Shown: positions 23,255-40,640, numbered from the stretch's first letter. The stretch is 64,000 bases of DNA from Gammaproteobacteria bacterium (GCA_965243395.1 CBDEUS010000001.1:256001-320000); one strand, 5' to 3'. The notes: a model not told the origin generated them from the letters alone. A program made the numbers and translations.

Positions 23255-24058
23255 GTGGGTAAGTGCATCGTCTGCAATAAATCAGCAGGACCCTTTTACT
23301 CTCTACATAAAGTTTGTTTACCTGTTTACCGGGATGCCCAGCAGTGTTTGAAAGCAAAATTATCTAGCTATCTTGAATCTGAAGAAGAGACATCAATAGC
23401 AGATATTAAAACATGTCGACCTTCTGAAGGTTTTTCGGAATATCACTTTAAACAAATATGCATTAAAGCCTGGCAAGAACATGCCAGAAATGTCGTAAGT
23501 CAAAAATCTTTAAATGTCCCTCTAACAAAGAAGCTTTTAAATTTTGCTAATGAGTTTGATATTTATAAAAATGAAACAGAACCTTATCTGATTTCACGCT
23601 TGATGAACATTGAATATTTGCAGGTCTTACAAAATGATCAGTCAATAGAATTTCACTCTAGCTTTGATATGACAGCGATAGAGCTTAATCAGGGTGAGCA
23701 TGCAATTTGGCAATTTGATGAGATAGATAAATCAGAACAGCATCAATATTCACAACAAAAGTCTTCGACGATATTTAATACGCTATTAGACAATTTATTC
23801 ATGAAGTCGCGATATAAACCCTTAGATGTGAAGCTAGAAAAGTCAGGAAAATTATTAATCACTAATCAAGCACTACATTATTTGTTAGATAACTCAGTAA
23901 AAGAAACAAAATTCTCAGATATTCACTCTGTAACGCCTATGAAAAATGGCATAAGAGTTCAAGCAGCAACAAGGAATGCATCACCAGATACCTACATAAC
24001 TGGAGATGGGCGTTTTACATATGCCTTGCTGCAATATGCGCAAGGTAAAGAAATCTAG
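23255..24058 (+). CDS. hypothetical protein (N-terminal CxxC, C-terminal PH-like region)
   Basis: CIVC...HKVC; GKLLITNQ..F..I. Confidence 0.6.
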   Translation: MGKCIVCNKSAGPFYSLHKVCLPVYRDAQQCLKAKLSSYLESEEETSIADIKTCRPSEGFSEYHFKQICIKAWQEHARNVVSQKSLNVPLTKKLLNFANEFDIYKNETEPYLISRLMNIEYLQVLQNDQSIEFHSSFDMTAIELNQGEHAIWQFDEIDKSEQHQYSQQKSSTIFNTLLDNLFMKSRYKPLDVKLEKSGKLLITNQALHYLLDNSVKETKFSDIHSVTPMKNGIRVQAATRNASPDTYITGDGRFTYALLQYAQGKEI

Positions 24059-24064
24059 ATAAGC

Positions 24065-24205
24065 TTAACCGCCAAATAGTTTTTTGAGCCAACCCATGAA
24101 GCCACCACTATCACTACTTTGTGACGATTTTGATTGGGTGGTTCGCCCGTTCTGAGCTTCATAGTGACGGCGTAAAACCGAATCAGTAGGAACTGCGTTA
24201 TCCAT
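24065..24205 (-). CDS. small hypothetical protein (46 aa)
   Basis: GGAG RBS; PTDSVLRRHY; amphipathic GFMGWLKKLFGG tail. Confidence 0.6.
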   Translation of the reverse strand: MDNAVPTDSVLRRHYEAQNGRTTQSKSSQSSDSGGFMGWLKKLFGG

Positions 24206-24450
24206 TTTTTCTCCTTTTGACCTTAGTTGAACAAGGATAGGTATTGTTATAGTTATGGAGACTGCGTGTACCTGGGTACAACTAGCGATTTTGTGCTTTG
24301 TTTGGCAAAGGGTCAACTAAGAATGCAGTACTATGCAAAGAAATTTGGTCTATTTTTGTAGTGGTTAAGTTTTAACTACTTGCTAATAAGCTGGTATTAT
24401 AATCAGGCATAAATTATTAAATAATCATAACGAGTTTAAGGATTTAACGG

Positions 24451-25077
24451 ATGAATAGAAAAGCGCTAGAAGTGCTGGCGGGTGGCAGATATCTCGAAGA
24501 CACGGTTATTCATGACAAGGACCGAGATCCAGAACTTGAAAGCCATGTTCGTAAAATGCTTGAGCTCATAGGTGAAGACCCAACTCGTGAAGGACTATTG
24601 GATACCCCAAAACGCGTTGCTAAAGCGATGCATTTTTTAACGGGGGGATATCAGCTTGGTGTAGAAGATGTTGTTCGTGAAGCATTGTTCGAAGAACAAT
24701 GTGAAGAAATGGTGATTGTTAAGGATGTTGAATTTTATTCTTTATGTGAACATCACATGCTGCCATTTTTTGGTCGTGCACATGTAGGCTATTTGCCAAA
24801 AAATAAAGTCATTGGTTTAAGCAAAATTGCACGTGTTGTGGATGTATTTGCAAGACGTTTACAAGTTCAGGAAAGACTCACTACGCAAATTGCTAGAGGA
24901 TTAATTGACGTATTAGATGCACATGGCGTTGCAGTTGTAATTGAAGCAAGTCACTTCTGTATGGTGATGCGCGGTGTGCAAAAGCAAAATAGTAAAACGG
25001 TTACCAGTTCTATGCTTGGGGCATTCCGGGATGATTCTCGTTCACGCTCAGAATTTATGGAGCATATTCGTGATTAA
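24451..25077 (+). CDS. folE: GTP cyclohydrolase I
   Basis: [47 protein letters not shown]. Confidence 0.97.
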
Positions 25078-25408
25078 CTGATCACATAGATGCGCGATTA
25101 TGACGCTCATCAGGAATGATGCATCCAATAAAAGTTAAGTCGGTTAAAAAAATATTCAGGTTGGAAATTTCAATTCAGATCTCTAAAGTGTTCGCAGTTA
25201 ATTAAATATTTCCATTATGGGAATAATTGCAAATTGTCCAAAGCAGACAAACGGTAGCTTTCAAAAAATTAATTTCACGAATAATGAGAGGTTTACCTCT
25301 CTTTTTTCCACTGCATAGAATCAATGTATAATTTAATCAAGATGAATGGATAAATATCTTTAATTCCCATACGTTAATTAACTAACACTGTACTGAGGTT
25401 TGTCTGCA

Positions 25409-25672
25409 ATGGAACTGCATGGTTGGAATAGTTGTAAACACATAACTCCAGAAATAAAACAGCAACCAAATAATAGAATCGCATCTGATCCTATTTGGTT
25501 ATTACTTGTAGATGGTACCGTTCTAGGTCATACGGTACGGTGTTTTTTAGATAGTAAAACAGAAATATCATGGGGCGGGATTAAAAAAGAGCTTGTTTCA
25601 CATTGGGCTTACAACATTCCTCCACCACTTCCTAATGAATTTACACCTAAAAAAATAAAGAAAACTGTTTAA
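25409..25672 (+). CDS. hypothetical protein, DUF551-like
   Basis: GWNSCKHITP...VSHWAYNIPPP resembles the DUF551 end motifs. Confidence 0.45.
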   Translation: MELHGWNSCKHITPEIKQQPNNRIASDPIWLLLVDGTVLGHTVRCFLDSKTEISWGGIKKELVSHWAYNIPPPLPNEFTPKKIKKTV

Positions 25673-25868
25673 GGTTTGATTGACGAGTGATAAATATAAA
25701 TATTTGGATCTCGCAGACATTGATAAGTTAAACTTAAGCTCAGAAGCGGGGATTAGGACTGTAGAAAAATTATAATTTCTTTGAAGTTTGGGAGAAGTGA
25801 TAATGTTTACTTAAGACTCAAAGTAGACATTTTCTGTAAGTGTTATGCCAACATAATATAGGTGCTTT

Positions 25869-26225
25869 ATGCGAAATATAGTAAATATTGTCGTTGTATA
25901 TATTACAGTCACAACTTTGATTATTGGCCAAACTATGCCAGCTTATGCAGGGCTTGTGGGTACAGATCAAATTTTACTAGAGGAAGTGACAAGTCAGGAT
26001 CGAGAAGTTCTGTATGAAATTTTCAATCGTAGCGATGCTCAGAAATTATTAGAAAAGAGTGGTGTTTCTAATAAACAAGCACATGAGCGAATAGCAGCTC
26101 TTACCGATGAGGAAGTAAGGATGTTCGCACAAAATTTTGAAGAACTTCCAGCAGGCGGTGTAGGCAATGCTGCGGCCATACTAATTTTAGTTTTGCTAAT
26201 AATTGTTCTTGCACTTGGAAATTGA
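25869..26225 (+). CDS. PA2779-family exported protein (copy 1)
   Basis: PAYAGLVGTDQIL, AHERIAALTDEE, LPAGG plus hydrophobic tail. Confidence 0.75.
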   Translation: MRNIVNIVVVYITVTTLIIGQTMPAYAGLVGTDQILLEEVTSQDREVLYEIFNRSDAQKLLEKSGVSNKQAHERIAALTDEEVRMFAQNFEELPAGGVGNAAAILILVLLIIVLALGN

Positions 26226-26394
26226 GAGCATTAGCGGATTTAGACATGTCCGCTCTCGAGCCAAAGTATGAGCACATAGAAGTGCGAACATGATGTACAT
26301 CGTGGACGATGTCTCTGGTTCTGTTCTTAATTAGAATGTCTGCTTTCGGCCCAAAGCGGACATAATTTGGTTTAATAATTCTTGGAATACTCCT

Positions 26395-26967
26395 ATGAAG
26401 CATCATGCCCTTGGTCTAGCGTTAATCTTAATTTTTACGATCCCAAAAATATGTTTAAGTGTAGATCAAGATTTCTATACAAACTTACGGTTAGAATTTT
26501 CTCAACGTGAAAATTATGATGCACTCTGGCATGTATCCTCGGAGCGGAAAGATATTTTTCAAGCTATTAAAGATAAAAACTATGAACTTACGGCAAGCAA
26601 GTCCAAAGTTTGGTTAGATAAATATCCAATCGATGCTGAAATTCATTATATTGCTGCACTTTCCAACGATAATTTAGGTAATCTTCAAGAATCAACTTAC
26701 CATTATTCGAATTTTTATGGTTTATTGAACTCTTTATTGCAATCAGGTGACGGATTATCATCAGAAACAGCGATACAAGTTATTTCAACAGCAGAGGAAT
26801 ATTTAGTAATCCAATTTATTGGTGGAAAATTTATTGAGCAATCTTTGATTCAAGGTAAATGCACTGCATATGATCAAATGGAGATTGAGATTAATGGCGA
26901 AAAGAGAAAAATGTATTTTGATGTAGCAATTCCTCTAACAGGAAAACCCGCCAAGCTTGATTGCTAA
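26395..26967 (+). CDS. exported DUF4919-like protein (cassette)
   Basis: signal peptide; SGDGLS.ETAIQVISTAEEY, YFDV. Confidence 0.7.
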   Translation: MKHHALGLALILIFTIPKICLSVDQDFYTNLRLEFSQRENYDALWHVSSERKDIFQAIKDKNYELTASKSKVWLDKYPIDAEIHYIAALSNDNLGNLQESTYHYSNFYGLLNSLLQSGDGLSSETAIQVISTAEEYLVIQFIGGKFIEQSLIQGKCTAYDQMEIEINGEKRKMYFDVAIPLTGKPAKLDC

Positions 26968-26981
26968 TTCAATTTTAATAA

Positions 26982-27082
26982 TTGACCGCTTTTGGCCGAA
27001 AGGAGACATAAAATGGTATGCAGTTGGTTGGTATCAACAAATTACAAACTTAAAATGTCCGGTATCGACCCGAAGCGGACAT
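26982..27082 (+). promoter_or_regulatory. 101-bp repeat-linker-repeat unit 1, putative promoter cassette
   Basis: 45-bp linker giving TTGGTA-N17-TAAAAT. Confidence 0.6.
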
Positions 27083-27130
27083 AAACTTGAATCATAATTA
27101 ATCTCTGTAAAGAAATCTGGAAGTTTTAAA

Positions 27131-27514
27131 TTGGCACATAATCTTGAAATAAATAAGCAGAATGCCATTGCATTTTATAAGACTGCCTATAACGGTGAAC
27201 CACGAAAAGCAGTTGAGCAATATGTCGGTGATGAATACATACAACACAATCCTGATGTAAAAGATGGTAAAGAGGGATTTATTGAATACTTTGAAGCAAT
27301 GGCAAGAGAGTATCCAAACAAAAGCATTGAATTTGTTCGCTCAATTGCAGAAGGCAACTTGGTGTCATTACACACTTACCAAACTTGGCCAGGAAATGAT
27401 GAATATGTAACGATGGATTTTTTCAGGTTTGATGATAATGGAAAAATTGTGGAGCATTGGGATTCAGTGCAACAGATACCAAACGAATCAGCGAATGATA
27501 ATAATATGTACTGA
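27131..27514 (+). CDS. SnoaL-like/NTF2-family protein (cassette)
   Basis: YIQHNP.V.DG.EGF, DFFRFDDNGKIVEHWD. Confidence 0.85.
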   Translation: MAHNLEINKQNAIAFYKTAYNGEPRKAVEQYVGDEYIQHNPDVKDGKEGFIEYFEAMAREYPNKSIEFVRSIAEGNLVSLHTYQTWPGNDEYVTMDFFRFDDNGKIVEHWDSVQQIPNESANDNNMY

Positions 27515-27575
27515 TAGTTGTTCTTTTTACATGTCCGTTATCGACCCAAAGCGGACATTTTTACGAAGTATAAAG

Positions 27576-28268
27576 ATGAAAAGTATAAGGAATATTTTAT
27601 ACAGTTTATCAATGGCTTTTGTTGTAAGTTGCGGTACTCCTGGTGTTGTTAATGAAATTAAAGTTGAACCTGTTAAAGAATCTAAGTGGGAGAATACTAG
27701 TTGGTCGCTAAATTTTATGTTTATTTGGCCAGTATATGAGAAAAAAGAACAAACTAATAAGGATTTGAGTGTTAGCGAAACAAATGAAAAAGAATTAGTG
27801 ATACACGGCCCGAAGCCAGCAAGTGAATTTGACCTAAGCGAAAATTTAAAAGCTGGCTTATCACGTTTTAGAGAAGATTTTTTCAATCAGCTGCCAATGA
27901 GTGCATCACTTAAAAAATCAGATGCTGATTACGATGTTGTTATAACTTTTACAATCAAAGACACACGTGGTCCTATTTATGTTGATGAAAAGGATTTAGA
28001 AATTGCAAAAAGAGCAGTAGATATAGATTTACTTACACCTATTGATCTTTTAGTAAAAGCTGACTTTGATGTGCTATATGATTTAACTACAAGCACAGGT
28101 GATGTGTTTCAAAAAAGCTACACTGTAATTGATTCAGTTGATCATCAGGAAAGTAGGTATGGAAGAAAATCAAATAGCCATATAGAACTATTGTCTAAGA
28201 AGATTTTTCGCAATCAAACTTTGAAAACTTCTAATAAATTTCTTGAAGAAGCTGCTAAAAAATTATAA
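27576..28268 (+). CDS. lipoprotein, hypothetical (cassette)
   Basis: MKSIR...FVVSC lipobox; start placed after the repeat. Confidence 0.7.
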   Translation: MKSIRNILYSLSMAFVVSCGTPGVVNEIKVEPVKESKWENTSWSLNFMFIWPVYEKKEQTNKDLSVSETNEKELVIHGPKPASEFDLSENLKAGLSRFREDFFNQLPMSASLKKSDADYDVVITFTIKDTRGPIYVDEKDLEIAKRAVDIDLLTPIDLLVKADFDVLYDLTTSTGDVFQKSYTVIDSVDHQESRYGRKSNSHIELLSKKIFRNQTLKTSNKFLEEAAKKL

Positions 28269-28272
28269 ATAA

Positions 28273-28373
28273 ATGTCCGCTATTGGCCGAAAGTAGTCAT
28301 AAAACAGGATGAACTAGGTTGGAATCAATAAGATGCAATCTTAAAATGTCCGGTAACAAACCATAGCAGACAT
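28273..28373 (+). promoter_or_regulatory. 101-bp repeat-linker-repeat unit 2, putative promoter cassette
   Basis: 45-bp linker giving TTGGAA-N17-TAAAAT. Confidence 0.6.
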
Positions 28374-28407
28374 TGCTTGTTTGCATCTTGTATGAGGTAT
28401 ATTCCAA

Positions 28408-28905
28408 ATGAATAAAGTAATAATACTTACGTTAATTATTTCAATATCGACTCTTTGTTTTGCAGACGAACTTACTCAGGAGAAGAGAGAAGATATTTTG
28501 TATTTATTAGAAAGATCAGGAAGTTTAGATGTTGGGTTAGAACTAGCTACAAATATTACCCAACAATTTAATCAAGTTTTAAGTCAAACAAATAAAGATA
28601 TTCCTAAGAATGTGTTCGTAGTTTTGCAAGAAGAATTAGAAATACTTTTGAAAGAAGAAACAGGCAAAAATGGGGGGCTTACTGATATTTCAATTAATGT
28701 GTATCACGATCACTTTACTCACGATGAAATAAAGCAACTCAATAAGTTCTATGATTCACCTATTGGTCAAAAACTGGCAGCTCGCACGCCCACGATAGCG
28801 AGAGAATCAATGATCGCAAGTCAGAAATGGGCTGAGAACATGCAGCCTTTGCTAGTAGATCGTGCGTTAACTGTTTTACGTTCTCAAGGCTATAATTTTG
28901 AATGA
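28408..28905 (+). CDS. exported DUF2059 protein (cassette)
   Basis: signal peptide; YHDHFTHDEIKQLNKFYDSPIGQK; stop codon lies inside the repeat. Confidence 0.8.
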   Translation: MNKVIILTLIISISTLCFADELTQEKREDILYLLERSGSLDVGLELATNITQQFNQVLSQTNKDIPKNVFVVLQEELEILLKEETGKNGGLTDISINVYHDHFTHDEIKQLNKFYDSPIGQKLAARTPTIARESMIASQKWAENMQPLLVDRALTVLRSQGYNFE

Positions 28906-28935
28906 CCGCTAACGATCCAAAGCGGACACTATTTA

Positions 28936-29247
28936 GTGAAATATCAACTTGTTATTCAATTTCCAGCTGAGTCTCAAAATGACTTCGACAATCTTATCGA
29001 AATTGAGAATGAATTAATAAAAAAGTTAACTGGTGACTCAGAAGTTGATGGGCATGATTTCGGAAGTGGAGAAATGAATATATTCATCTTCACGAATGAG
29101 CCTAATAAAACATTTAGTCATGTCATTACTATGTTAACAAGTAGAGATGAAAATATTTCGAATATGAAAGCTGGCTATAGAGTCATTGAAGATGAGGATT
29201 TCACTGTACTGTGGCCTAATGATCTAACAGAATTTGTAGTACGATGA
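28936..29247 (+). CDS. acidic hypothetical protein (cassette)
   Basis: VDGHDFGSGEMNIFIFT; flanked by repeats; stop inside the repeat. Confidence 0.75.
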   Translation: MKYQLVIQFPAESQNDFDNLIEIENELIKKLTGDSEVDGHDFGSGEMNIFIFTNEPNKTFSHVITMLTSRDENISNMKAGYRVIEDEDFTVLWPNDLTEFVVR

Positions 29248-29303
29248 CCGCTAACGACCCAAAGCGGATATTAGTTAATATTAATATCTAACAAAATACT
29301 ACT

Positions 29304-29645
29304 GTGTCTATTAAATTTCACTTCATGCTTGGATTGATATTATTGGCATTGTATGGATTATTTTTATTTAAAATTGAATCTATTCTTCCGTATTTTTATG
29401 ATGTATTAAGTGGAGATGTGCGCTCCAGTGGCCCTAGATACACCTATTGGGCCATTTGTATAGTTCTTGTTTTACCTTCAGTTTCAGTGTTCTTCTTTCT
29501 TTTTGGAAATAAAGTCAGTGATTGGTTATCTATGTACGTAAGACATGGTGATTTTTATACTAAAGGAGTGATTTATTTATTTGGATACATCAGTCTAATG
29601 TTTTCAGTAATAGTTATATTCTTATTTAAGTTAATAGAATATTAA
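29304..29645 (+). CDS. 3-TM membrane protein (cassette)
   Basis: three hydrophobic segments; flanked by repeats. Confidence 0.65.
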   Translation: MSIKFHFMLGLILLALYGLFLFKIESILPYFYDVLSGDVRSSGPRYTYWAICIVLVLPSVSVFFFLFGNKVSDWLSMYVRHGDFYTKGVIYLFGYISLMFSVIVIFLFKLIEY

Positions 29646-29678
29646 TATCTGCTATTGGTCGAAAGGAGACAAATTTAA

Positions 29679-29834
29679 ATGGCTAAAGATGAATCGTTAG
29701 AAAAGTTTGAAAAAGAATACGAAGAAACTCGTAAGAAAATTGAAGAGATTGAAGATAAGGCGCTTCGGAAAATTAGGAAAAAAGACCGATCAAACAGTAA
29801 CGGTGATAATGGAATTGGTGACCGCCCTGAATGA
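29679..29834 (+). CDS. 51-aa cassette ORF with sigma70 region 4.2-like helix (not in ORF track)
   Basis: MAKDESLEKFEKEYEETRKKIEEIEDKALRKIRKKDRSNSNGDNGIGDRPE; AGGAG RBS in the upstream repeat, TGA in the downstream repeat. Confidence 0.65.
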   Translation: MAKDESLEKFEKEYEETRKKIEEIEDKALRKIRKKDRSNSNGDNGIGDRPE

Positions 29835-29870
29835 CCGCTAATGGCCGAAAGCAGAAATTACACTAAATAA

Positions 29871-30284
29871 ATGTTCAATCTAAAAAATAAAATTTTCTTG
29901 ATTGCTCTGATCGTTGGATTAGTGCTTTTATTAATTGGTTGTTCAAAATCTCATGATCTCGATATAGATAAAATTACCTCAATTACTGTTACCCATCTTG
30001 GTGACAATGATTCATTAAATGATCTGATAGAGTTTTGTGTGGGGACGTCAGAACTATCCAATACTAAGAAATGGCTTAGACACAATAGGGACGATTGGAA
30101 ATCTCACATAGATACAGAACCAGCAGGAAAATTATTAATATCAGGTCACGGATTTAGGCTAAATGTTGGTGATTCGTGGGTGATAATGATTTGTGATCAT
30201 GATGACGGAGAAACTCATCGATTAACAAAAACTATATCTCCTGCGGAATTTAGTTATTTGGATAAATCTGAAAAATTACAATGA
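29871..30284 (+). CDS. lipoprotein, hypothetical (cassette)
   Basis: LLIGC lipobox; stop inside the repeat. Confidence 0.7.
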   Translation: MFNLKNKIFLIALIVGLVLLLIGCSKSHDLDIDKITSITVTHLGDNDSLNDLIEFCVGTSELSNTKKWLRHNRDDWKSHIDTEPAGKLLISGHGFRLNVGDSWVIMICDHDDGETHRLTKTISPAEFSYLDKSEKLQ

Positions 30285-30381
30285 CCGCTTATGGCCGAAA
30301 GCAGTCATAATTTAAGGTGAACTAGGTTGGATTCAATAAAATACCGGCACAAGATGTTTGGCATTGACCCAAAGATGACAT
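30281..30381 (+). promoter_or_regulatory. 101-bp repeat-linker-repeat unit 3 (more degenerate)
   Basis: 45-bp linker aligns without gaps to units 1 and 2; TTGGAT-N17-CAAGAT. Confidence 0.5.
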
Positions 30382-30482
30382 GATTTATGCCATTCAGTAT
30401 TTAGCTGATTGGTTGGAATAAAATTTAGTGCCAATATCATTATCTTCGCACATAGGGGAAATTCACATATCGGGAGTATTCC

Positions 30483-31148
30483 ATGAAAACTAAGTTAGCT
30501 TTTGTAATTGTATTATTACTTGGTGGTTGCCAAACACCAAATGTTCCAGATGATTTTAGCTTTGAGCCAAGCGCTGATAAAAATACAGGAATTATAATTG
30601 GTTCAGTGACTCAAAATAATGATGTTTCGAATGCTACTGTGGCAGATTTCAGAATTGATCATCAATTAAAAAAAGATACAAAACTTTTGTACTCAATGAA
30701 CACTAATGAGCTGTTGGGCGGATTTGCAAATAAGTTTGGATTTGAAGAAGGAAATCTTGGTGGACGTATGTTCGTTGTGGAAGTTGAAGAAGGAGATCAC
30801 CAGTTAGATTACTGGTCGATAAATCACAACAATAACTACCTCATTATTTATCCAAAAGTACCGCCGCCAAAACTTGAATTTAGTTTAGAACATGGACAAA
30901 TTATGTATATTGGTAATTTTCATATAGATATCGTAGCAGAAAAGAATTTTTTAGGCGCGTTATTGCCCCTAGGTGGAGAGCCATCAATAAATAATAAATA
31001 TCCTAGAGATATAGAATTAATATATGAAAAATACCCTCAGCTTAAGGATAAAGAAATAACCATAAATGTCTTACATGAAGGCACATGGATAAACGAGATT
31101 CATGAAGAGGAAGAATTAGAAATACCTACATCCAAAGAACAGTCATGA
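30483..31148 (+). CDS. lipoprotein, hypothetical
   Basis: LLGGC lipobox; GGGAG RBS. Confidence 0.75.
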   Translation: MKTKLAFVIVLLLGGCQTPNVPDDFSFEPSADKNTGIIIGSVTQNNDVSNATVADFRIDHQLKKDTKLLYSMNTNELLGGFANKFGFEEGNLGGRMFVVEVEEGDHQLDYWSINHNNNYLIIYPKVPPPKLEFSLEHGQIMYIGNFHIDIVAEKNFLGALLPLGGEPSINNKYPRDIELIYEKYPQLKDKEITINVLHEGTWINEIHEEEELEIPTSKEQS

Positions 31149-31828
31149 AAAATATCATTATTTTTTTAGCATGTATTTTATTGGTCAAATTCGCTTATGC
31201 AAATGAGTCGAATCGAGATATTCCAGACCCTCAAAAAATTATAGATGCATATAATAATGCCGAGTGCTGCATTTTCATTGATCAACTTAAACCTACAAAG
31301 CTAGATAAACGGACCAGACTAGATTTATATCTCTATGAGTCAAAAAATCTTCTTGAACTATCTACTGGACCAACTTTTGCAGCCCTTGTGGAAATTCCAC
31401 TAAGTAATAAAAAAGAGAGATACGAAGTCGAGACTAACGTTATGCATGTAGGTGATGATTTATATGTATATTTTCCTTATGTAGCATTTTTGAATGATGA
31501 ACTAAAGTTATTAGGCACATCTGATTTCACACATAGTAATTATAGTGGTAAGTCTTTATTTCAACCAACAGGAATTTTGAATTTTAATTTCAATCTTGAT
31601 CCAAATTTAAAAGGCGATGAAGCAGTAAGATATCTCTTAATCTACACACGTAAAAAACATTTTTCACAAAATACTACAGATCAATTGAAAGAAGAATCTC
31701 GAAATGTCAGATTGAAAGAAATATCTCTAGAGTATGCAAACACTGTAAGCGAATACATTCAAAGAGACTTGCTTTATGGATTGCCTGGAGGAAAGGTGAG
31801 CGTATCAAATAAAGGCAAGTTTTTTTAA
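31145..31828 (+). CDS. exported hypothetical protein (weakly MalM-like)
   Basis: signal peptide AYA; ATGA overlap with the upstream gene. Confidence 0.6.
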   Translation: MKNIIIFLACILLVKFAYANESNRDIPDPQKIIDAYNNAECCIFIDQLKPTKLDKRTRLDLYLYESKNLLELSTGPTFAALVEIPLSNKKERYEVETNVMHVGDDLYVYFPYVAFLNDELKLLGTSDFTHSNYSGKSLFQPTGILNFNFNLDPNLKGDEAVRYLLIYTRKKHFSQNTTDQLKEESRNVRLKEISLEYANTVSEYIQRDLLYGLPGGKVSVSNKGKFF

Positions 31829-32025
31829 GTCAATAAATATCTAATTATAATTTGAATTGATTGGCCGCTTACGACCCAAAGCGGACATCCGACTATTGCC
31901 ATTCGAGCTATAAAATTATCCATACACACCATTTTGCTTACATTGAAGAATTGTTGGAGTATGCTGAATTCTCAATAATTTAAAAATAATTAGTATTAAT
32001 AAACTAAATGTCGCAAGGATAAGAT

Positions 32026-32409
32026 ATGCGGGTTCTTCTAAATAAAGTAGTCATATTTTTATTAGCATTAACGCTTTTGATTAGTCAGTCAATGCCAGCC
32101 TATGCGGGTCTTGTAGGCACGAAACAATTAATCGATCAGCAACTCTTAGAATTAGATCGCGAAACATTACTCAATGTTTTTGAACGAGATGAAGCACATT
32201 CACTACTGCAAAAGCACGGAATAACGCATAAGCAGGCACAAGATCGAGTCAATGCAATGACAGATCAGGAGATTTATGTATTTGTCCAGAAGTTTGAGGA
32301 ACAACAAGCTGCAGGAAGCGTTGGTATTGCTGCAGCTGTGTTAATCATAGTTTTACTCTTTATTGTTTTAGACCTGTCCGGAAAAACAGATGTGTACAAA
32401 GGAATTTAA
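32026..32409 (+). CDS. PA2779-family exported protein (copy 2)
   Basis: MPAYAGLVGTKQLI, AQDRVNAMTDQE, LDLSGKTDVY. Confidence 0.8.
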   Translation: MRVLLNKVVIFLLALTLLISQSMPAYAGLVGTKQLIDQQLLELDRETLLNVFERDEAHSLLQKHGITHKQAQDRVNAMTDQEIYVFVQKFEEQQAAGSVGIAAAVLIIVLLFIVLDLSGKTDVYKGI

Positions 32410-32429
32410 TCAAGTTTTAGGAGCTATTC

Positions 32430-33020
32430 ATGCTATTTAACAATTCAAATCGAATACATAAAATATTTATTAGAAGTGTTTTATTAGGTTTGGGGATAAT
32501 TTTAATTAGCACTTCTGTTTATAGTAAACCACCACCTTGGGCACCTGCACATGGTTATCGAGATAAACATGGACATAAATATTATGATCATCATTATGCG
32601 GATGTCATCGGTATTTTTGATGGAAAATGTAAGTACGAGAAAATAGGTACAGTTGTCGGTGGTGCAACGGGTGCTGTTATCGGTTCTAAGGTTGTGGATA
32701 AAGATGATCGAGTAATTGGCGTGATTGCCGGCACGATCATTGGTGCCATTATTGGTAAGACAGTAGGTCGTGTATTAGATGAGCGTGATCGACACTGCAC
32801 TGCACAAGGATTGGAGTATGCTCGAAGTGGCCAATCTATTCACTGGCATAATCCAAATTCGAATATTGATTATGAAGTCACTCCCTTTAGGTTTTATCAA
32901 AGTAATGGTTTGGATTGTCGCATGTTTTCCACCAAAGCTAGGTTAGCCGACGGTAAGACGACGGAGTATGAGAGTGATGCCTGTTTACATGATGATGGCA
33001 TCTGGAGGACTGTGTATTGA
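32430..33020 (+). CDS. glycine-zipper RT0821/Lpp0805-like surface antigen
   Basis: PPPWAPAHGYR, GTVVGGATGAVIG, LDERDRHC, W.NP, AC..DG.W. Confidence 0.8.
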   Translation: MLFNNSNRIHKIFIRSVLLGLGIILISTSVYSKPPPWAPAHGYRDKHGHKYYDHHYADVIGIFDGKCKYEKIGTVVGGATGAVIGSKVVDKDDRVIGVIAGTIIGAIIGKTVGRVLDERDRHCTAQGLEYARSGQSIHWHNPNSNIDYEVTPFRFYQSNGLDCRMFSTKARLADGKTTEYESDACLHDDGIWRTVY

Positions 33021-33237
33021 AATTCATTATGAGTACGTATGAATAATATTCTTACCTATTTCGATACGCGAGAGATAATGATTTCACTCAGAATTTGTTT
33101 TTTAATGGCTTCTATTTAACTTGTAAGCTAATCAAAACCGTTCATCGTAGGATTCGCTCCGAATTTGAGTGAATATTACAAAATAGTCTCAAGAAACAAT
33201 CAACTAGTTAAGTTACAAATATAGTAATGGAATACTA

Positions 33238-33663
33238 ATGAGCAAATTGAATACCGTCATTGAATTAATAAAAAATAAATCTCATTCTCTGACTGGAATA
33301 TTTGAAAAAGGTGTTGATCATTGTCGCCATAAGCTGGATCGTGAATCCACCATTGATCCTGAAGCAAACGAATCGGCATTGACAAAGGCTGTAGATAAAT
33401 GCAGGGAAGAAATAGAAAGATCTGATCAAAAAAATAAAATTCCTTCGCCAAAATATTTTGAACATGTTGCGATGCTTTCTAGACAAACAAGAAATTATCA
33501 AAACGAGATCGCTATTTGTGAATTGTATCTTGAGACACTACAAAAGCATTCATCGAAGTATAAATTTTCAAAAAGGAAAATAGAGAAAGAAATTCGGCCG
33601 CTTTGTGAAACAATGATGATGCGAATACATAATGCAAAAACATTAAGTGAGAAACAAATATAA
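33238..33663 (+). CDS. hypothetical protein
   Basis: 141-aa ORF coupled to the next gene. Confidence 0.55.
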   Translation: MSKLNTVIELIKNKSHSLTGIFEKGVDHCRHKLDRESTIDPEANESALTKAVDKCREEIERSDQKNKIPSPKYFEHVAMLSRQTRNYQNEIAICELYLETLQKHSSKYKFSKRKIEKEIRPLCETMMMRIHNAKTLSEKQI

Positions 33664-33896
33664 TGACACGAAAAATAAAAAAAGAACCTGTTAAAATGCT
33701 TCAAGAGGTTGATACAGAAATGATCCATATAAAAGGGTGGATCGCAGATAAAGAATTTAAAGATAATATTAATAATTCACATCTTACCTATCAGAAGGTT
33801 TACGACTACGCTAAAAAGCTATCACTTGAATGTAAAGTCGCAATTAGATCAGTCGCTGACGGCGACACTCATATCATGAAGGTGTATAAAAAGTAA
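33663..33896 (+). CDS. hypothetical protein
   Basis: 77-aa ORF overlapping the previous stop. Confidence 0.5.
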   Translation: MTRKIKKEPVKMLQEVDTEMIHIKGWIADKEFKDNINNSHLTYQKVYDYAKKLSLECKVAIRSVADGDTHIMKVYKK

Positions 33897-34045
33897 TCCG
33901 AATTGAATTACTATTAATCTCAAACAAATTGTTTGCATTAACAGAATGCTAAAAATTCATTTTATATTTTTATTAAATTAATAAGTTTTTAGCGGGTAAG
34001 GGCCTAATACACAATCCTGAATAATTAGTTAAGTTACGCTCGGTT

Positions 34046-35248
34046 CTATTTGACAACGCTGCCGAGATCGCTTGCCCATTTTATTGCTTGCAGATAAGCT
34101 TTTCGATATTCGCTATGATCGATCAAATGCATAAGTGTATCCCAGTCACCTTGTTCATAATATTTTATATTCTGAAGCACCTCTCCCATTTTTCCAGTAT
34201 GAGATAATAAGGCTAAACTTACTTCTTCTGTTAAAGGTAATGTTTCAAGAATTTCTTCTAGTGACATATCCATTAATGCATCTAAAATAGAGAATAACCC
34301 AACTGAGAAATATTGATCAGAAACTCCATTAGGATCAGATTTCCCAAGAATTTCTGCCATCTTTGCTCTCATCATTCCAGTGAGCATTAGTTCTTTAGGC
34401 TTCTCGTCTGATAAGCGTAACATCAACATTAAACTTGCCCATTTTCTAACTTCATCCGTACCTAGTAATGTTAGAGCATGTTTAATAGATTCAATTTTTA
34501 TACGCAATGCATAAAAGGCTGAATTCATATAACGAAGTAAGTGATAAGCAAGTGTAGGATCACGTCCAATAAGGTTTTCAAGCTCATCAATATTAACGGA
34601 TGGGTTCTGAAGTTCTGAAATTAATTTGAGAACAATCATTCTATTACCTTCAATTCGTTTCCCTATAAACATTTGAGGCTTACAAAAAAAGAAACCTTGA
34701 AAATAATCGAACCCTAGTTCTTTACATTGTTCAAACTTTTCATGAGATTCAACACGTTCAGCTAAAAGCTTTATCTTGTGACTACGCAATACACTAACGT
34801 GCTTCTGTAAGTCAATATCACTTAAAATACTGACATCTAGTTTTACAAATTGAGAAACTTTTAATAAAGGATCGAACTTTGGGGTATAAATAAATTCGTT
34901 CAGTGCAATTTGAAATCCAGCACGTGATAAGTTGCCTAACCCGGCGATTAGTTCATCGTCAATTACATCATTTTCAAGTACCTCTAACACTATCTGCTCA
35001 TGCATTTGTGGCAAGGGTAGCTCACCAATCAAAAACCCACGTGTCATATTTATAAATGCTAGCTTTGTACCTACAATATTTTCTAGACCGATATCTATTA
35101 ATGCACTAATAATGACATCAGTGGTTGCTTCATCACCATCAACAATGTTTGCATTATTTGAAGCTTTTTTACGATACAAAAGCTCATATGCAAATACATT
35201 CAGTTGACGATCATAGATGGGTTGACGTGCAAGAAATATTACTGCCAT
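34046..35248 (-). CDS. EAL-HDOD domain protein (YuxH-like)
   Basis: FLARQPI, YELLYR, LAERVE, YFQGFFF, LLRYMNSA, GLFSILDALM. Confidence 0.9.
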   Translation of the reverse strand: MAVIFLARQPIYDRQLNVFAYELLYRKKASNNANIVDGDEATTDVIISALIDIGLENIVGTKLAFINMTRGFLIGELPLPQMHEQIVLEVLENDVIDDELIAGLGNLSRAGFQIALNEFIYTPKFDPLLKVSQFVKLDVSILSDIDLQKHVSVLRSHKIKLLAERVESHEKFEQCKELGFDYFQGFFFCKPQMFIGKRIEGNRMIVLKLISELQNPSVNIDELENLIGRDPTLAYHLLRYMNSAFYALRIKIESIKHALTLLGTDEVRKWASLMLMLRLSDEKPKELMLTGMMRAKMAEILGKSDPNGVSDQYFSVGLFSILDALMDMSLEEILETLPLTEEVSLALLSHTGKMGEVLQNIKYYEQGDWDTLMHLIDHSEYRKAYLQAIKWASDLGSVVK

Positions 35249-35585
35249 TTTTATTTAGCTTAATAAAGGGTTTAAATTGCAAAATTAGTCACAACTTAAT
35301 AAACGGCATAATATGGATATTCTTTACGTTTTATTTGATTGAAATGAACCCATTCTGACAATTTGGGTATCTGAGCAGTCATTCTCTCGCAGAAGACTTA
35401 ATGAATAAATTATTCTAAGGCGAAAAAACACTTCAAATGCTTATTTCTGAACAATTTTTCAGATTATATTGTAGGCAAAAGTACTCTATTGAAGACTATA
35501 ATAAAGTTGCGAGAGGTATTAGATAGTGAATGACCGCTATTGGCCGAAAGCGGACATAATTAGGAAAAATCTAAAGGAGCTTTAG

Positions 35586-35852
35586 ATGCGTTATATAGCT
35601 GGAGTCTTAATCCCTGTAGTGCTTCAATGTTTGTTTGTATTTATTATTATTGAAATGAACACGGGGAATGGTTCATGGATTGGATTAGGTGCACTGTTAA
35701 TAGGTATGTTTGCAATCCCTGCAACGGCTATTATTAATTTTCTCTATATAAAAACAAATAAAGGCCGAAGCACTGTTTCGCTAATGTCACGGTGTTTTTT
35801 AATCGCAATAATAGCGCCTGTAATAATTCTATTATTATTGCTGGTTGGGTAA
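35586..35852 (+). CDS. small membrane protein (cassette)
   Basis: AAGGAG RBS; three hydrophobic segments. Confidence 0.7.
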   Translation: MRYIAGVLIPVVLQCLFVFIIIEMNTGNGSWIGLGALLIGMFAIPATAIINFLYIKTNKGRSTVSLMSRCFLIAIIAPVIILLLLLVG

Positions 35853-36032
35853 CAATAAATGTCCGCTATTGGCCGTAAGGAGCGAAAACAAGGCCACTGA
35901 GGGAGATATTCAGGTTGGAATCTTTTGAACACATATAAAGTGTAAATTCAGTGGCATTATTTGGAAAAAGAAGAGTGAAACATATTTGAAGAGCATTTTA
36001 CAAAGTGTAACTAATTTATAAAGAGGTTGTGT

Positions 36033-36638
36033 ATGTTTAAATGGAGTTATCTACTTATATTAACATTTATTATTTTAGCTGGTTGTGCATCAACATCAAA
36101 TCAACCAGTCTTTGAATTTGATAGTGGTGATGCAAAAGGTGTATTTGTACCAGTTCGTGTTCACATTAATAGAAATGTACCTGTTGCCCGTTTTTATGAA
36201 TCAAGATTAATCGAAGTTAAAAATACGTTAAAAAGGAGTGGTATGTTTTTAGAGGTAGGATCGCATGTCGATTCTCCTTATGTGTTAGATTTACAGTTAG
36301 AGCGAGGTTCTAATGATAATGCGGTTGATACAACAGCACAGCTACTTTCTGCTGCAACTTTATTTTTACTTCCCTCTAAGGTAAATGGTTATCACATATT
36401 AAAAGCTGACTTATATATCGATGGAAGCTTGCTAAAGAGTTACGAATATAAAGATGAATATGATGAGACTATTAGTATTTATAACTACAATGAGGCTGCC
36501 AGTAATGATGGTGATGAATTTGTCTCCATCCGAAATGTGGTGAATAAACTATTAAAAGGTTTAGATGAAGATGATGTTATTGAAAGATATATCGATAACT
36601 CAAATCAACAAGATACTCCTAAAGAGTATGATATCTAA
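36033..36638 (+). CDS. lipoprotein, hypothetical (cassette)
   Basis: ILAGC lipobox; LSAATLFLLP. Confidence 0.75.
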   Translation: MFKWSYLLILTFIILAGCASTSNQPVFEFDSGDAKGVFVPVRVHINRNVPVARFYESRLIEVKNTLKRSGMFLEVGSHVDSPYVLDLQLERGSNDNAVDTTAQLLSAATLFLLPSKVNGYHILKADLYIDGSLLKSYEYKDEYDETISIYNYNEAASNDGDEFVSIRNVVNKLLKGLDEDDVIERYIDNSNQQDTPKEYDI

Positions 36639-36722
36639 TAAGGTAAAACGTTTGCTATAGACCCAAAGCGGACATGCTAAGCATCATTAATTCATGTATT
36701 GATAAACCTAGAGTAACTTTTT

Positions 36723-37085
36723 ATGGGAAATACCGTTTGGGTGTTAAGCGAAAATAGTGATGAGGATGATTGGGATCACTCATTTATTTTAATAAATGAG
36801 CAGTCACTCGACAAACTCGCAGACCAATTAAGTGTTAAGAAACTAAGTGATTTATACGATCATTCAATTTTGGCAGAAGAATATGGAGAGGATATTGAGC
36901 CAAACTATATAATTCCAGACGATTTAGAATCTGTATTAAATCCTCTGATTACCGCTATTCGTAATGGAGATGCAGGTAAGCTAAATGGTGATACTGAAAT
37001 CATTGAAGAACTTGAAGATTGTTTAGAAAAAGTTTTAAACGCCAAGAGTCGCAGCTCAAAAGTACGACTAGCAATTGTGCCCTAA
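36723..37085 (+). CDS. acidic hypothetical protein (cassette)
   Basis: 120 aa, D/E-rich, flanked by repeats. Confidence 0.7.
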   Translation: MGNTVWVLSENSDEDDWDHSFILINEQSLDKLADQLSVKKLSDLYDHSILAEEYGEDIEPNYIIPDDLESVLNPLITAIRNGDAGKLNGDTEIIEELEDCLEKVLNAKSRSSKVRLAIVP

Positions 37086-37166
37086 TTATCCTTTGCGAAT
37101 GTTCACAATTGACCGTTAAGAGGCATTTAGCGAGAAGCTTTATCGTTCGGAAAATATAAACTAATC

Positions 37167-37400
37167 ATGAAAAAGCTATTTTGTTTTATGTTTATCGGCA
37201 TTGGTGCATTGTTAGTATTTGCAGCAGGTACTATTGGGCTTGGTTTTGGGGCTATATATTTAATGGGTGCAATAGGTACTGGCGGTCGTGAGGGTGTTGG
37301 AGAGCTAGTTACTGTTGTAATGATAGGTGTTGCTGGGTTCGTAGTTGGATATTTTCTGATTCGTATCGGAAGAGGGCTTGGTGTTAGCAATACCCAATGA
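37167..37400 (+). CDS. small 2-TM protein (cassette)
   Basis: Gly-rich hydrophobic helices, flanked by repeats. Confidence 0.6.
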   Translation: MKKLFCFMFIGIGALLVFAAGTIGLGFGAIYLMGAIGTGGREGVGELVTVVMIGVAGFVVGYFLIRIGRGLGVSNTQ

Positions 37401-37493
37401 AGGTGTTTCAAAAAATAATTAATTTCTATTTACGATCAAAGCGGACATTATATTTAATCATTCAGGGCATTTACTTTTAAACTCGATTCTCTA

Positions 37494-38753
37494 CTACGTA
37501 TCTCTTTCAATAATCATAGCTGCCGCCGTCCCACCTGCGCCACAAATACTAATTAAACCTAAGTGCGAATTTCTGCGCTTCATTTCGTTCGCTAATGTGG
37601 TTGTAATGCGAATACCTGTTGCAGAAAAAGGATGACCTATTGCTATTGAGCTACCTAAAGGGTTTAATTTTTCTTGATCGACTTTACCAATAGCTGGCTC
37701 TTTCCAACCTTGTTCCCATGCTTTTAGATTACAAGCAATTTGTCCTGCAAATGCCTCGTGCATTTCAATAATGTCAAAGTCCGATAGTGAAAGTGAATTA
37801 CGTTTTAGTAATCTTGGCACAGCAAGTGCAGGGCCCATTAACAATCCTTCTCTTGGTTCTATGCCAACAAACTCGAAATCTTTTACATATGCGAGAGGTT
37901 CAAAACTTTTGTTTTTCGCATACTGTTCTGACATTAATAGTATAGAGGCTGAACCATCAGTCAGCGGACTAGAATTTCCTGCCGTGATCGTACCTTTTGA
38001 ACTACGATCAAATACTGGTTTAAGTTTGGCAAGCTTATCTATAGTAGTATCAGGACGAATAAATTGATCGGTTTCAATTCCATCCAAAGGATCTATTTCC
38101 TCAAGTAGGCGACCATCTTGACTTGCTTGGTATGCATTCATATGACTTCGGTAGGCAATTTCATCTTGTGCATCTCGAGAAATGTTCCATTCTTTTACCA
38201 TTAGTTCTGTATGTTCACCCATTGACAATCCAGTAGATGGTTCTTTTATACCAGGTGAAGTTGGTTTGAAATGTCGTGGTCGTAATTTTAATAATTGACG
38301 TATACGCTTTGTATTCGTTTTTTCTGAAAATGCATCTAGAAAAATACGACTTGCCGAACGGCTAAATAAAAGCGCCGGATTTGACATCGATTCCACACCT
38401 CCAGCAATACCGGCTTCAGATCTTCCAGTTGATATTGAATCATAAATGGTTCGGATTGCAGAAAGTCCAGTAATGCAATTGTTTGTTATCGTCAATGCCT
38501 GAAGCTGTGCTGGCAGTTTATTAGCTAAAACAATCTCTCTTGCCAGATGGGGGATCCTTGGATCGACAACAACAATGCCGTAAACAAATTCTTGCAAATC
38601 ATCTTTATTGACATTCGTTTTGTTCAGCAGGCCTCGAACAGAATGTCCAGATAGTTCAAGAGCTGTGTAATGTTTGAAAACTGTGCCCGCGCGAACAAAT
38701 GGTGTACGAATACCATCAATAATTGCAACACGCTTTGAAGGATTAATATTCAC
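37494..38753 (-). CDS. acetyl-CoA C-acyltransferase (thiolase, FadI-like)
   Basis: DGIRTPF, NNCITG, TAGNSSPLTDG, HEAFA, GHPFSATG, CGAGG. Confidence 0.9.
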   Translation of the reverse strand: MNINPSKRVAIIDGIRTPFVRAGTVFKHYTALELSGHSVRGLLNKTNVNKDDLQEFVYGIVVVDPRIPHLAREIVLANKLPAQLQALTITNNCITGLSAIRTIYDSISTGRSEAGIAGGVESMSNPALLFSRSASRIFLDAFSEKTNTKRIRQLLKLRPRHFKPTSPGIKEPSTGLSMGEHTELMVKEWNISRDAQDEIAYRSHMNAYQASQDGRLLEEIDPLDGIETDQFIRPDTTIDKLAKLKPVFDRSSKGTITAGNSSPLTDGSASILLMSEQYAKNKSFEPLAYVKDFEFVGIEPREGLLMGPALAVPRLLKRNSLSLSDFDIIEMHEAFAGQIACNLKAWEQGWKEPAIGKVDQEKLNPLGSSIAIGHPFSATGIRITTTLANEMKRRNSHLGLISICGAGGTAAAMIIERDT

Positions 38754-39235
38754 TACTCGCTTCCATCATTAACATTGAAAATCAATCGTATAAAAATCAT
38801 GAAGTGCGTAACTAAAAGAAAAGGTACTAAAAATGTGGGTATGTACCAGTTTGCGCCAAACATTGATATTACCTCTGCGTGACGCAATGCATTTAGTAAA
38901 TCTATGAATCCAACTATATTAAATATCCAAACGATAACCAATGCGAATGGCCATTTATAATAGAGAAAACATAACGCAACGAATGCAAGTATACCTGCTG
39001 CTAAATCGCCGTAGGCAGCTGGAACTGCAAAATTACTGGGCAACGTTTGTAATGAAAGCCCAGGAACAAGAAAGCTCATACCTATATGTCGAAACGTATG
39101 AGGTAGTGTAAGCCAGAATAATGCTGTTTTGAGCGGTTGTTTATTCAGCCAAGGCGAAGCAATCCATTTCATCAGGAAACTGAACACTATTATGCTTAGC
39201 AAAAACTGTAAAAGGAATATTGCTTGTGTGTCCAT
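38753..39235 (-). CDS. membrane hypothetical protein
   Basis: PHTFRHIG, AAYGDL, IPTFLVP.LLVTH; multiple TM segments. Confidence 0.75.
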   Translation of the reverse strand: MDTQAIFLLQFLLSIIVFSFLMKWIASPWLNKQPLKTALFWLTLPHTFRHIGMSFLVPGLSLQTLPSNFAVPAAYGDLAAGILAFVALCFLYYKWPFALVIVWIFNIVGFIDLLNALRHAEVISMFGANWYIPTFLVPFLLVTHFMIFIRLIFNVNDGSE

Positions 39236-39267
39236 CTCGCACCTCTTTTTATTTTAGTGAATTAATT

Positions 39268-39296
39268 AAAAAAAACGGCCTCTTAATCGAGGCCGT
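39268..39296 (-). terminator. intrinsic terminator after the YHS gene
   Basis: ACGGCCTC-loop-GAGGCCGT followed by a T-run on the minus strand. Confidence 0.75.
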
Positions 39297-39313
39297 AATG
39301 AGAGGTCACTTAC

Positions 39314-39769
39314 TTAGAGTGACGCGGGGGATGCATCTTTTATTTTTGGCCATTCCTTGTCCGCCATTTCGATCCTTCCTGGGATATCCTTTTCCCATTC
39401 CTTTTGAATATTCTCATCCAAGTTGAGATAAAGCGTTCCATCAACAATCTTCCATACTGTTGGATCACCTACAAATTTTTTGCCTACAGATACACCATAA
39501 GCACAGTATCCACCATATGCGGGTATGTAATTTTGAGGATTTTTATTAAATGCTTGCATGTTTTCTTTAGTTGAAAACAAATAGGTCACACCTTCATGAT
39601 CTGAAACATAATGCCCATTTCCGCGAACAGGACCTGTTTCACTATGATAGGAAACCAAATCATAACCTTGTACACCAGGTGTACTATTGGTATGAATGTT
39701 AGCTGCTAATGAACTGGTGCTAACACCAGCTAAGAACAATGTTGATATTAAGAAAGTTATTAGTTTCAT
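39314..39769 (-). CDS. exported YHS-domain protein
   Basis: GYDLVSY, YLFST, PAYGGYCAYG, WKIVDGTLYLN; signal peptide. Confidence 0.88.
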   Translation of the reverse strand: MKLITFLISTLFLAGVSTSSLAANIHTNSTPGVQGYDLVSYHSETGPVRGNGHYVSDHEGVTYLFSTKENMQAFNKNPQNYIPAYGGYCAYGVSVGKKFVGDPTVWKIVDGTLYLNLDENIQKEWEKDIPGRIEMADKEWPKIKDASPASL

Positions 39770-39972
39770 TTCTCGCTCCTTTAATAAATTAAATAAAAAT
39801 TTGGCTTTTTTCATAAAGCCCTTCCGTATACATGATCACTATTACTAGCATGATTGCTCCAGTGGTTAATGTTTTAGAAGTCTTATGCATCTCTGTCTCA
39901 TTTATCATGTTTTTCTCACACGTATCTCTTTTTCAATTTTGATTAAGCTACCTATATATTTTTTCTTTTTTA

Positions 39973-40221: not shown

Positions 40222-40235
40222 TTTTAATATTGATC

Positions 40236-40562: not shown

Positions 40563-40640
40563 TATTTCTCTCCTGTGATAGTTGCTGGTGAACATCCCTG
40601 TTCTATACTCGTCCTTGATCGCTAACGCTAAACACAGCAA

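Follow-up and report, generated by a model that had tools for sequence, protein, structure and literature searches.

We investigated a 64,000-nt stretch of a Gammaproteobacteria bacterium genome (GCA_965243395.1, CBDEUS010000001.1:256001-320000; hereafter, the window), in which three short units (26982-27082, 28273-28373, and 30281-30381) lie within an array of small gene cassettes bounded by a near-palindromic 28-nt repeat. We found that the three units are copies of a composite junction element that occurs genus-wide and in which a linker separates two flavors of the repeat (repeat A, linker, repeat B). Across the copies, we observed a common anatomy, a ribosome-binding signature, and a lack of stop codons that is specific to one frame. 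The account that we favor, with a confidence slightly short of even, is that the 3′ half of the linker and repeat B form a translation unit, the leader open reading frame (ORF) of which would aid expression of the downstream cassette; a promoter may overlap on the same bases as the translation start. The first-pass annotation had described the units as gene-less sigma-70 promoter modules; however, each of them holds a frame of 15-18 codons opening at the TTG of the supposed −35 element. The cassette system itself, which operates here without an integron integrase, appears to be undescribed.

Composite junction elements in a cassette system

On its two sides, the array is flanked by folE (24451-25077) and by a thiolase gene (37494-38753, − strand), and the intervals between its repeats are filled by small unrelated genes, mostly on the + strand (Table 1). 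The two repeat flavors differ at their centers, which read TTGGCCGAAAG in flavor A and CGACCCAAAG in flavor B; clean copies in the window are ATGACCGCTATTGGCCGAAAGCGGACAT at 35530-35557 for one flavor and ATGTCCGTTATCGACCCAAAGCGGACAT at 27531-27558 for the other. All three units consist of a 28-nt repeat, exactly 45 nt, and another 28-nt repeat, and their linkers align without gaps, letter for letter as first reported. This layout had been described with the same repeat on both sides, which does not hold: the left copy is always flavor A and the right copy always flavor B.

Table 1. Features of the cassette array and of associated repeats. Positions refer to the window unless a genome and contig are given.
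Feature	Position	Strand	Description
Half-linker heading array	25159..25187	+	GGTTGGAA + 21 nt, then decayed repeat
Cassette array	25223..37448	+	About 19 copies of near-palindromic 28-nt repeat, all on +
Unit 1, repeat flavor A	26982..27009	+	
Unit 1, 45-nt linker	27010..27054	+	GGTTGGTA at 27026-27033
Unit 1, repeat flavor B	27055..27082	+	
Unit 1, short ORF	27028..27084	+	TTG start, 18 codons + TAA, through repeat B; LVSTNYKLKMSGIDPKRT*
Unit 2, repeat flavor A	28273..28300	+	
Unit 2, 45-nt linker	28301..28345	+	AGGA at 28306-28309, GGTTGGAA at 28317-28324
Unit 2, repeat flavor B	28346..28373	+	Decayed copy
Unit 2, short ORF	28319..28366	+	TTG start, 15 codons, TAG inside decayed B; LESIRCNLKMSGNKP*
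Unit 3, repeat flavor A	30281..30308	+	Its TGA (30282-30284) is the stop of upstream ORF 29871-30284
Unit 3, 45-nt linker	30309..30353	+	AAGG at 30313-30316, GGTTGGAT at 30325-30332
Unit 3, repeat flavor B	30354..30381	+	Decayed copy
Unit 3, short ORF	30327..30383	+	TTG start, 18 codons + TGA, through repeat B; LDSIKYRHKMFGIDPKMT*
Decayed fourth unit	35859..35941	+	A repeat, then 55-nt-type linker, GGTTGGAA at 35913-35920
Repeat TGA as upstream cassette stop	28902-28905, 29244-29247, 29831-29834, 30281-30284		
Second repeat	26265-26317		Inverted copy
Second repeat	25080-25135		Weaker copy
Second repeat	G000:C1:28564-28607	−	Paired with the next row
Second repeat	G000:C1:30462-30515	+	
Second repeat	G000:C1:423420-423499		
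Second repeat	G000:C2:247742-247788		
Second repeat	G000:C2:997730-997784		
Third motif	G000:C1:878358-878410, 893528-893580, 902027-902080		Outside the window

A position-weight scan, with a matrix built from the window copies, located 123 copies of the repeat across the genome (2.58 Mb); a shuffled control genome yielded 0. These copies form approximately 15 clusters, nearly every one of which has a single orientation. They include 14 A-linker-B doublets, all in the order A then B, and the linker of fixed length that the first-pass annotation proposed to seek in other arrays was found there, measuring 45 nt in 11 of the 14 doublets and 55 nt in the other 3. The array at C1:232-236 kb is a regular run of B-gene-A-linker units, and three isolated cassettes in this genome read B-gene-A. 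We examined 60 repeats other than the B of a composite: at 43 of them, a long ORF terminates between −30 and +9 of the repeat; a TGA internal to the repeat (positions 2-4, within ATGA) serves as the stop of the upstream ORF in 11 of the 60, and 8 more directly abut the stop.

Relatives were searched with a pattern anchored on the two repeat centers only, with the reversed pattern as the control. The pattern had matches in 15 of 31 related genomes and its reversed control in 0. Within the genus, 13 of the 14 other genomes carried it, as did 1 of 4 further genera in the family and 0 of 12 families outside it. ArgG is too conserved to place this genome at any rank below Gammaproteobacteria. More than 100 copies of A-linker-B, with linkers of 45 or 55 nt, were present among the sequences examined, and a scan of a genome collection recovered many uncultured Gammaproteobacteria and Thiotrichales-labelled genomes with linkers of these two lengths; the collection loci were picked by a pattern requiring A then B, which biases flavor counts outside this genome but not linker content. 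In high-GC Gammaproteobacteria (Dyella, Lysobacter, Noviluteimonas, several uncultured genomes, and others), A and B are separated by 40-43 nt of unrelated sequence, which indicates that the A-linker-B architecture is older than the linker sequence described here. The linkers of these high-GC loci (L002, L010, L018, L022, L024, L061, L070, L072, L076, L085, L095, and L114) typically have TCA or TCG at the start and TGA or TAA at the end, and are thus bracketed by stop codons on both strands.

Unit 2 had no match in plasmid and phage collections, and the covariance models of Rfam 15 gave 0 matches at E ≤ 1 across window positions 24000-39000. In the searchable literature, a paper on zebrafish, unrelated to this work, was the sole match to strings of 13-14 nt taken from the repeat, and keyword searches turned up no description of Xer-type or integron-like cassette arrays with palindromic repeats that matches this system (supplementary files were outside the scope of this search).

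Ribosome-binding signature and proposed leader ORF

Ahead of TTGGAA, at a distance of 7-9 nt from its TTG, the linkers keep a G-run that reads GGGGA, GGGA, or AGGA. Counted from where repeat B starts, this run occupies positions −40 to −35, with the TTG located at −27. When the 15 nt before TTG were paired with a generic anti-Shine-Dalgarno sequence, the mean energy was −5.8 kcal/mol, and 79% of 112 units reached −4 or better, compared with −1.1 at random positions and −1.9 at gene starts (gene starts were crudely assigned, both here and for the ORF gaps given below). Three units form a class with 31-nt linkers, in which the G-run is absent and AGGAG or GAAG of the A-repeat arm stands 8 nt before TTG. 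The consensus of 55-nt linkers has an in-frame TAA upstream of TTG, and TTG is replaced by GTG in two variants.

The TTG frame enters repeat B in phase with the ATG of B and continues through it. Stop trinucleotides were counted in 103 distinct sequences of 27 nt running from TTG to where the linker ends; there were 2, 74, and 77 in frames 0, 1, and 2, respectively, and the corresponding counts in 45 cluster representatives, which differ at approximately 10 of 21 bases, were 0, 35, and 31. Codons beginning with TA in frame 0 were TAC (43), TAT (11), TAA (1), and TAG (0), whereas TAA occurred 126 times in the other two frames. Through repeat B, the TTG frame was open in 44 of 45 units with linkers of 44-49 nt (other frames, 20/45 and 2/45) and in 71 of 77 units with linkers of 50-57 nt (9/77 and 11/77). 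Shuffling of alignment columns in the 55-nt class gave an expectation of 36.7 ± 2.6 open frames against the 55 of 57 observed, which 0 of 2000 shuffles reached, a contrast inflated by subfamily structure. A frame that is kept open across more than 100 diverged copies, in which about half of the 21 nt past TTGGAA are different, points to purifying selection. The encoded peptide is poorly conserved and its stop codon comes from whatever follows B; in 92 composites, this stop lies at a median of 11 nt past B and the start of the next gene at a median of 29 nt past B. The decayed fourth unit of the window (35859-35941) has no B repeat, and its TTG frame, too, is not open but closed by a stop.

Under the translation-unit account, repeat A would close the upstream cassette, the ORF of which often ends at or inside A. 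The translation unit would then comprise, in order, the Shine-Dalgarno-like G-run, the invariant TTG 7-9 nt later, nine variable codons, and repeat B read in its own ATG frame, with the stop codon of the leader ORF provided by the cassette that follows, in its 5′ leader. Ribosomes would load at the linker on read-through transcripts, translate across the B hairpin while melting it, and end a few bases before the next gene, such that this stretch of the polycistronic RNA would stay translated and the next start site accessible. The hexamers resembling −35 and −10 elements, which occupy the same bases, may add an outward promoter. We infer from sequence comparisons, the source of all evidence here, that the TTG frame is translated, with a benefit to downstream expression, and that its mode of action would resemble that of ORF-11, ORF-17, and ORF-18 of the integron site attI1.

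Several observations weigh against this account. GGTTGGA(A/T) is constrained beyond what coding needs, including an invariant GG before TTG; no ATG start occurs in more than 100 copies, and codon 2 is never the synonymous GAG or GAC. Although a reading frame could accommodate indels of 3 nt between TTG and B, none is seen, and the only two length variants of this interval are each 1 nt shorter, which breaks the frame. The TTGGAA-N21-B copies that lead arrays or stand isolated have no Shine-Dalgarno-like run, and the G-run of unit 1 is weak (GGTA). The three genes after the window units carry their own Shine-Dalgarno sequences and so need no coupling. Moreover, the gap from the short-ORF stop to the next start is at most 10 nt in 43 of 92 composites and in 51 of 130 single B repeats, and hence not clearly tighter in the former; the copies are also paralogues, and counts made on them are not independent. 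The invariance of GGTTGGA(A/T), the lack of ATG starts, and the array-leading copies without a Shine-Dalgarno-like run indicate an additional role at the DNA level, perhaps that of a −35 element or of a site bound by a protein.

Promoter-like hexamers and alternative explanations

Base conservation was assessed for linkers of 45 nt (n = 42) and 55 nt (n = 64), and hexamers were tallied in 43 + 69 motif-bearing units, split at linker lengths of <50 nt and ≥50 nt. GGTTGGA(A/T), which spans −29 to −22 when counted from the first base of B, hardly varies. In the same place, TTGGAA, TTGGAT, or TTGGTA was found in 41 of 43 45-nt linkers and 68 of 69 55-nt linkers (109/112 together). The distance from hexamer to B is identical in 116 of 118 motif-bearing units, with all other length variation upstream of the motif, and TTGG(AA/AT/TA) lies 21 nt ahead of 120 of 284 B repeats versus 1 of 303 A repeats.

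These figures suit a sigma-70 promoter, which would consist of TTGGAA, 17 nt, and TAAAAT or CAAAAT with its AT taken from B; the transcript would start in the left arm of B and restart expression at the next cassette, the short ORF being incidental. We regard this as a possible explanation, although one that holds a minor share of our confidence. The first-pass annotation had looked to homologous linkers for a refutation of the promoter, and they do not provide one: the −35-like hexamer and the 17-nt spacing are kept. The −10 element carries over less fully. Its A at position 2 and T at position 6 are both present in 42 of 43 45-nt linkers, whereas only 37 of 69 55-nt linkers have the A at position 2, and most of the 32 without it read TTTAAT. 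Position 6 of the −35 hexamer is only A or T, which coding does not demand. A further argument for a promoter comes from TTGGAA-N21-B modules that have neither an A repeat nor a G-run and that stand at the head of some arrays and before isolated cassettes (window 25159; C1:28644, where the distance to the repeat is 22 nt, not 21; C1:900968; C2:247855; and C2:658911). One isolated cassette, C2:247904-248470, is a lone + strand gene flanked by two − strand genes and must therefore have a promoter of its own within 108 nt. Internal promoters carried by cassettes are known in chromosomal integrons, as described in PMC8876359. On the other side, units 1 and 2 match TTGACA/TATAAT at 9 of 12 positions each, with 17 nt between the hexamers, but 9/12 matches in this AT-rich region are not commoner than in shuffles (44 against 59.5 ± 7.6), and unit 3 (TTGGAT/CAAGAT) reaches 6/12 by manual count and is absent from the scan list. 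The −35 hexamer never drifts to TTGACA (the G at position 4 is fixed), the adjoining GG is invariant, and the stretch upstream is G-rich rather than an A/T-rich UP element. A promoter would also leave unexplained both the lack of stops in one frame and the presence, in three classes of linker length, of a suitably spaced Shine-Dalgarno-like run.

It is unlikely, in our judgment, that the composite is instead a site for the cassette machinery at the DNA level, that is, a full attC-like recombination site in which A pairs with B in single-stranded form, the linker is the loop, GGTTGGAA is bound by a recombinase or an accessory protein at a fixed distance from B, and single repeats are collapsed forms. 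The strict A-then-B order and the rigid length of the 3′ half would suit such a fixed geometry, as would the near-invariance of GGTTGGA(A/T) at the nucleotide level and the recurrence of A, 40-43 nt, and B with unrelated linkers in distant high-GC Gammaproteobacteria. Long A:B hairpins can form (−28.6 and −22.7 kcal/mol in units 1 and 2; z = −3.0 and −2.3), but unit 3 folds no better than shuffles (z = 0.0), and the A and B arms are nearly invariant, with no compensatory changes. RNAalifold recovered weak long-range A:B pairs only, with no conserved structure within the linker. Also in line with a recombination site, single cassettes recur in other samples beside other neighbors and the content between conserved flanks is wholly different in the closest relative; however, no recombinase is linked to the arrays, and the lack of stops in one frame would again be unexplained. 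Very improbable to us is a functionless relic, in which the 5′ leader and first codons of a nearly deleted cassette were joined to its 3′ repeat and spread with cassettes or as a selfish element resembling a MITE (a miniature transposable element with inverted repeats). The linker does resemble the leader of an ordinary cassette, opening A/T-rich and continuing with a Shine-Dalgarno sequence and a start codon; decayed copies exist at window 35859-35941 and in the relative G012, and the B repeats of units 2 and 3 are degenerate. Yet a relic would hardly keep one frame open in more than 100 diverged copies, nor would it be retained in 13 of 14 other genomes of the genus with strictly conserved length.

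The half-linker that heads the window array (25159-25187) has no A repeat and no Shine-Dalgarno-like run ahead of it. Thirty nucleotides past unit 3, a second TTGGAA with GG ahead of it opens a promoter-like match (30413-30440; 16-nt spacer, TATCAT, 9/12), which lies upstream of a gene starting at 30483. Genome-wide, GGTTGGA(A/T) has 213 copies versus approximately 127 expected, which we found uninformative about a genome-wide regulatory motif; most of the 60 places listed were coding-like (Gly-Trp codons) when judged by eye.

Cassette variability and recombinase search

In the closest relative (G012, locus L124), the folE gene of which is 90% identical, the flanks of the array align, and the approximately 17 kb between them shares only repeats. 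Relative to G012, window positions ~25800-43488 make up a hypervariable island of approximately 17 kb, including the thiolase gene and its neighbors. Contigs from other samples, which by themselves are weak evidence and carry no information on starts, ends, or strand of transcripts, contain single window cassettes at 98-100% identity that break at repeats and continue with other neighbors, and one such contig has linker-type sequence ahead of the 26336 repeat, a position at which the window lacks it. Stretches of the window with no coverage in runs X5-X7 were left out of the evidence. A recurrent insertion point follows the stop of a response-regulator gene: it holds B-cassette-A in this genome (G000:C1:422917-423419, locus L120), A and a linker without B in G012 (locus L138), and no repeat in ten other genomes of the genus.

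No integron integrase was found in this genome, and PF01797 (Y1/RAYT transposase) had no match in it, the genome being scored as 100% complete. It encodes five tyrosine recombinases, namely, XerC, XerD, and three integrases of phage type. When the latter three were searched against 119 array loci (tblastn), one match was obtained, in an unrelated chance locus, and none near arrays. The single dif-like site (C1:959290) is unlike the 28-nt repeats. TIGR02249 scored above its cut-off in 3 of 26 genomes of the family (G014:C20, G015:C29, and G040:C9; loci L134-L136), but no 28-nt repeat of ≥14 bits was present within 12-20 kb around these integron integrases, indicating that classical integrons and the 28-nt repeat system are independent in the family.

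Comparison with known systems

The closest known parallel is ORF-11, which is equipped with a Shine-Dalgarno sequence of its own, extends over the attI1 crossover point, and takes its stop codon from the inserted cassette; it acts through being translated and not via its peptide (PMC8876359). Translation of cassettes, and not their distance from the promoter Pc, sets the expression of the downstream array, according to recent work (PMC11511950). The putative leader ORFs described here resemble ORF-11, ORF-17, and ORF-18 in being short, in having their own Shine-Dalgarno sequence 7-9 nt before the start, and in crossing a recombination-type site; in both cases, the downstream cassette gives the stop, so that peptide length varies, and the peptide sequence matters little. 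Unlike ORF-11, which is present in a single copy in attI beside the integrase gene, the units are multi-copy, lie between cassettes, start with TTG, and occur without an integron integrase, and their translation is a prediction. Internal promoters of chromosomal integrons likewise place promoter-like hexamers within a same-strand array and would free distal cassettes from a single leader promoter. The known cases (PMC8876359) are separate promoters, each located in the 5′ leader of a particular cassette, whereas the units are one conserved module of fixed length, reused at many junctions, with putative promoter activity. In integrons as presented in textbooks, promoterless cassettes are expressed from one platform, and the means by which distal cassettes stay expressed are debated, with internal promoters, translated upstream cassettes, and coupling through ORF-11 among the proposals.

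The attC sites of integrons are imperfect inverted repeats of approximately 100 nt after the cassette stop; they form hypervariable arrays in the same orientation and fold in single-stranded form, and clusters of attC sites lacking an integrase are called CALINs. The present arrays share with these the imperfect inverted repeats of approximately 100 nt, the single orientation, the capacity to fold as a single strand, the same-strand cassettes, a site directly after the ORF, and a content that varies between relatives. However, the units have no RYYYAAC/GTTRRRY cores, by the usual definition, their termini being ATGWCC or TTGACC on the left and GACAT on the right; conservation of the 28-nt arms extends to sequence and is not confined to structure; most junctions are a single 28-nt palindrome; and the integron integrases of the family are not associated with the 28-nt repeats. 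In enterobacteria, BIME-1 (also RIB or RIP) elements are mosaics built from REP sequences, with two palindrome flavors and a conserved linker of fixed length, approximately 100 nt in all and located after gene ends. The units match them in the two flavors, the fixed-length linker, the overall size of approximately 100 nt, and the position after gene ends. They differ in that there is no RAYT gene here and that an IHF-type site, which we rejected as a general linker feature, matched its consensus exactly in 8 of 43 45-nt linkers and 0 of 69 55-nt linkers. In addition, REPs alternate in orientation, whereas the 28-nt repeats cluster in arrays that run all one way.

Correia elements of Neisseria measure approximately 100-150 nt, carry inverted repeats at their ends, and can give rise to promoters and influence the expression of neighboring genes; the likeness to them is one of description only, as they are scattered MITEs with TA target duplication and not junctions of cassette arrays. 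The pdif modules of Acinetobacter plasmids are bounded by 28-bp XerC/XerD sites with an 11-6-11 layout, and they too are gene modules between 28-bp sites. In contrast to pdif sites, the present repeats are unlike the dif-like site of the host, have one orientation rather than an alternating one, and form chromosomal arrays.

If the units are translated or transcribed as proposed, a cassette system different from integrons would answer the problem of distal expression with a reusable junction module of fixed length, in many arrays per genome and with no linked integrase. This would be a case of convergent evolution of expression adaptors over recombination-type hairpins and a natural system for testing ribosome transit across hairpins as a control of array polarity; it would also draw attention to a mobile-cassette system, apparently not described before, among uncultured Gammaproteobacteria of marine and sediment habitats. 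A bolder version, which we consider rather unlikely, is that the units are portable expression mini-cassettes of this undescribed system, in which an outward promoter, a ribosome-loading site, and a leader ORF with the sole job of taking ribosomes past the hairpin of the next repeat occupy overlapping bases and arose independently of Pc and ORF-11, and in which arrays are often bracketed by an inverted second repeat of approximately 55 nt (see below). Were this so, the element would be a naturally reshuffled modular part that makes any downstream cassette expressible.

Other repeats near the arrays

A second repeat family, of approximately 55-80 nt with two small hairpins, has 19 copies in the genome and is abundant throughout the genus. 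Eleven of the 19 copies lie within 70 nt of a 28-nt repeat. The second repeat occurs in direct orientation after the last A and in inverted orientation 67 nt upstream of the first B, with the GGTTGGAA half-linker between; with an inverted copy ahead and a direct copy behind, some arrays are thus bracketed by terminal inverted elements, in a transposon-like manner. A third conserved motif, of approximately 45 nt with a GGGTG..CACCC hairpin, follows three terminal A repeats.

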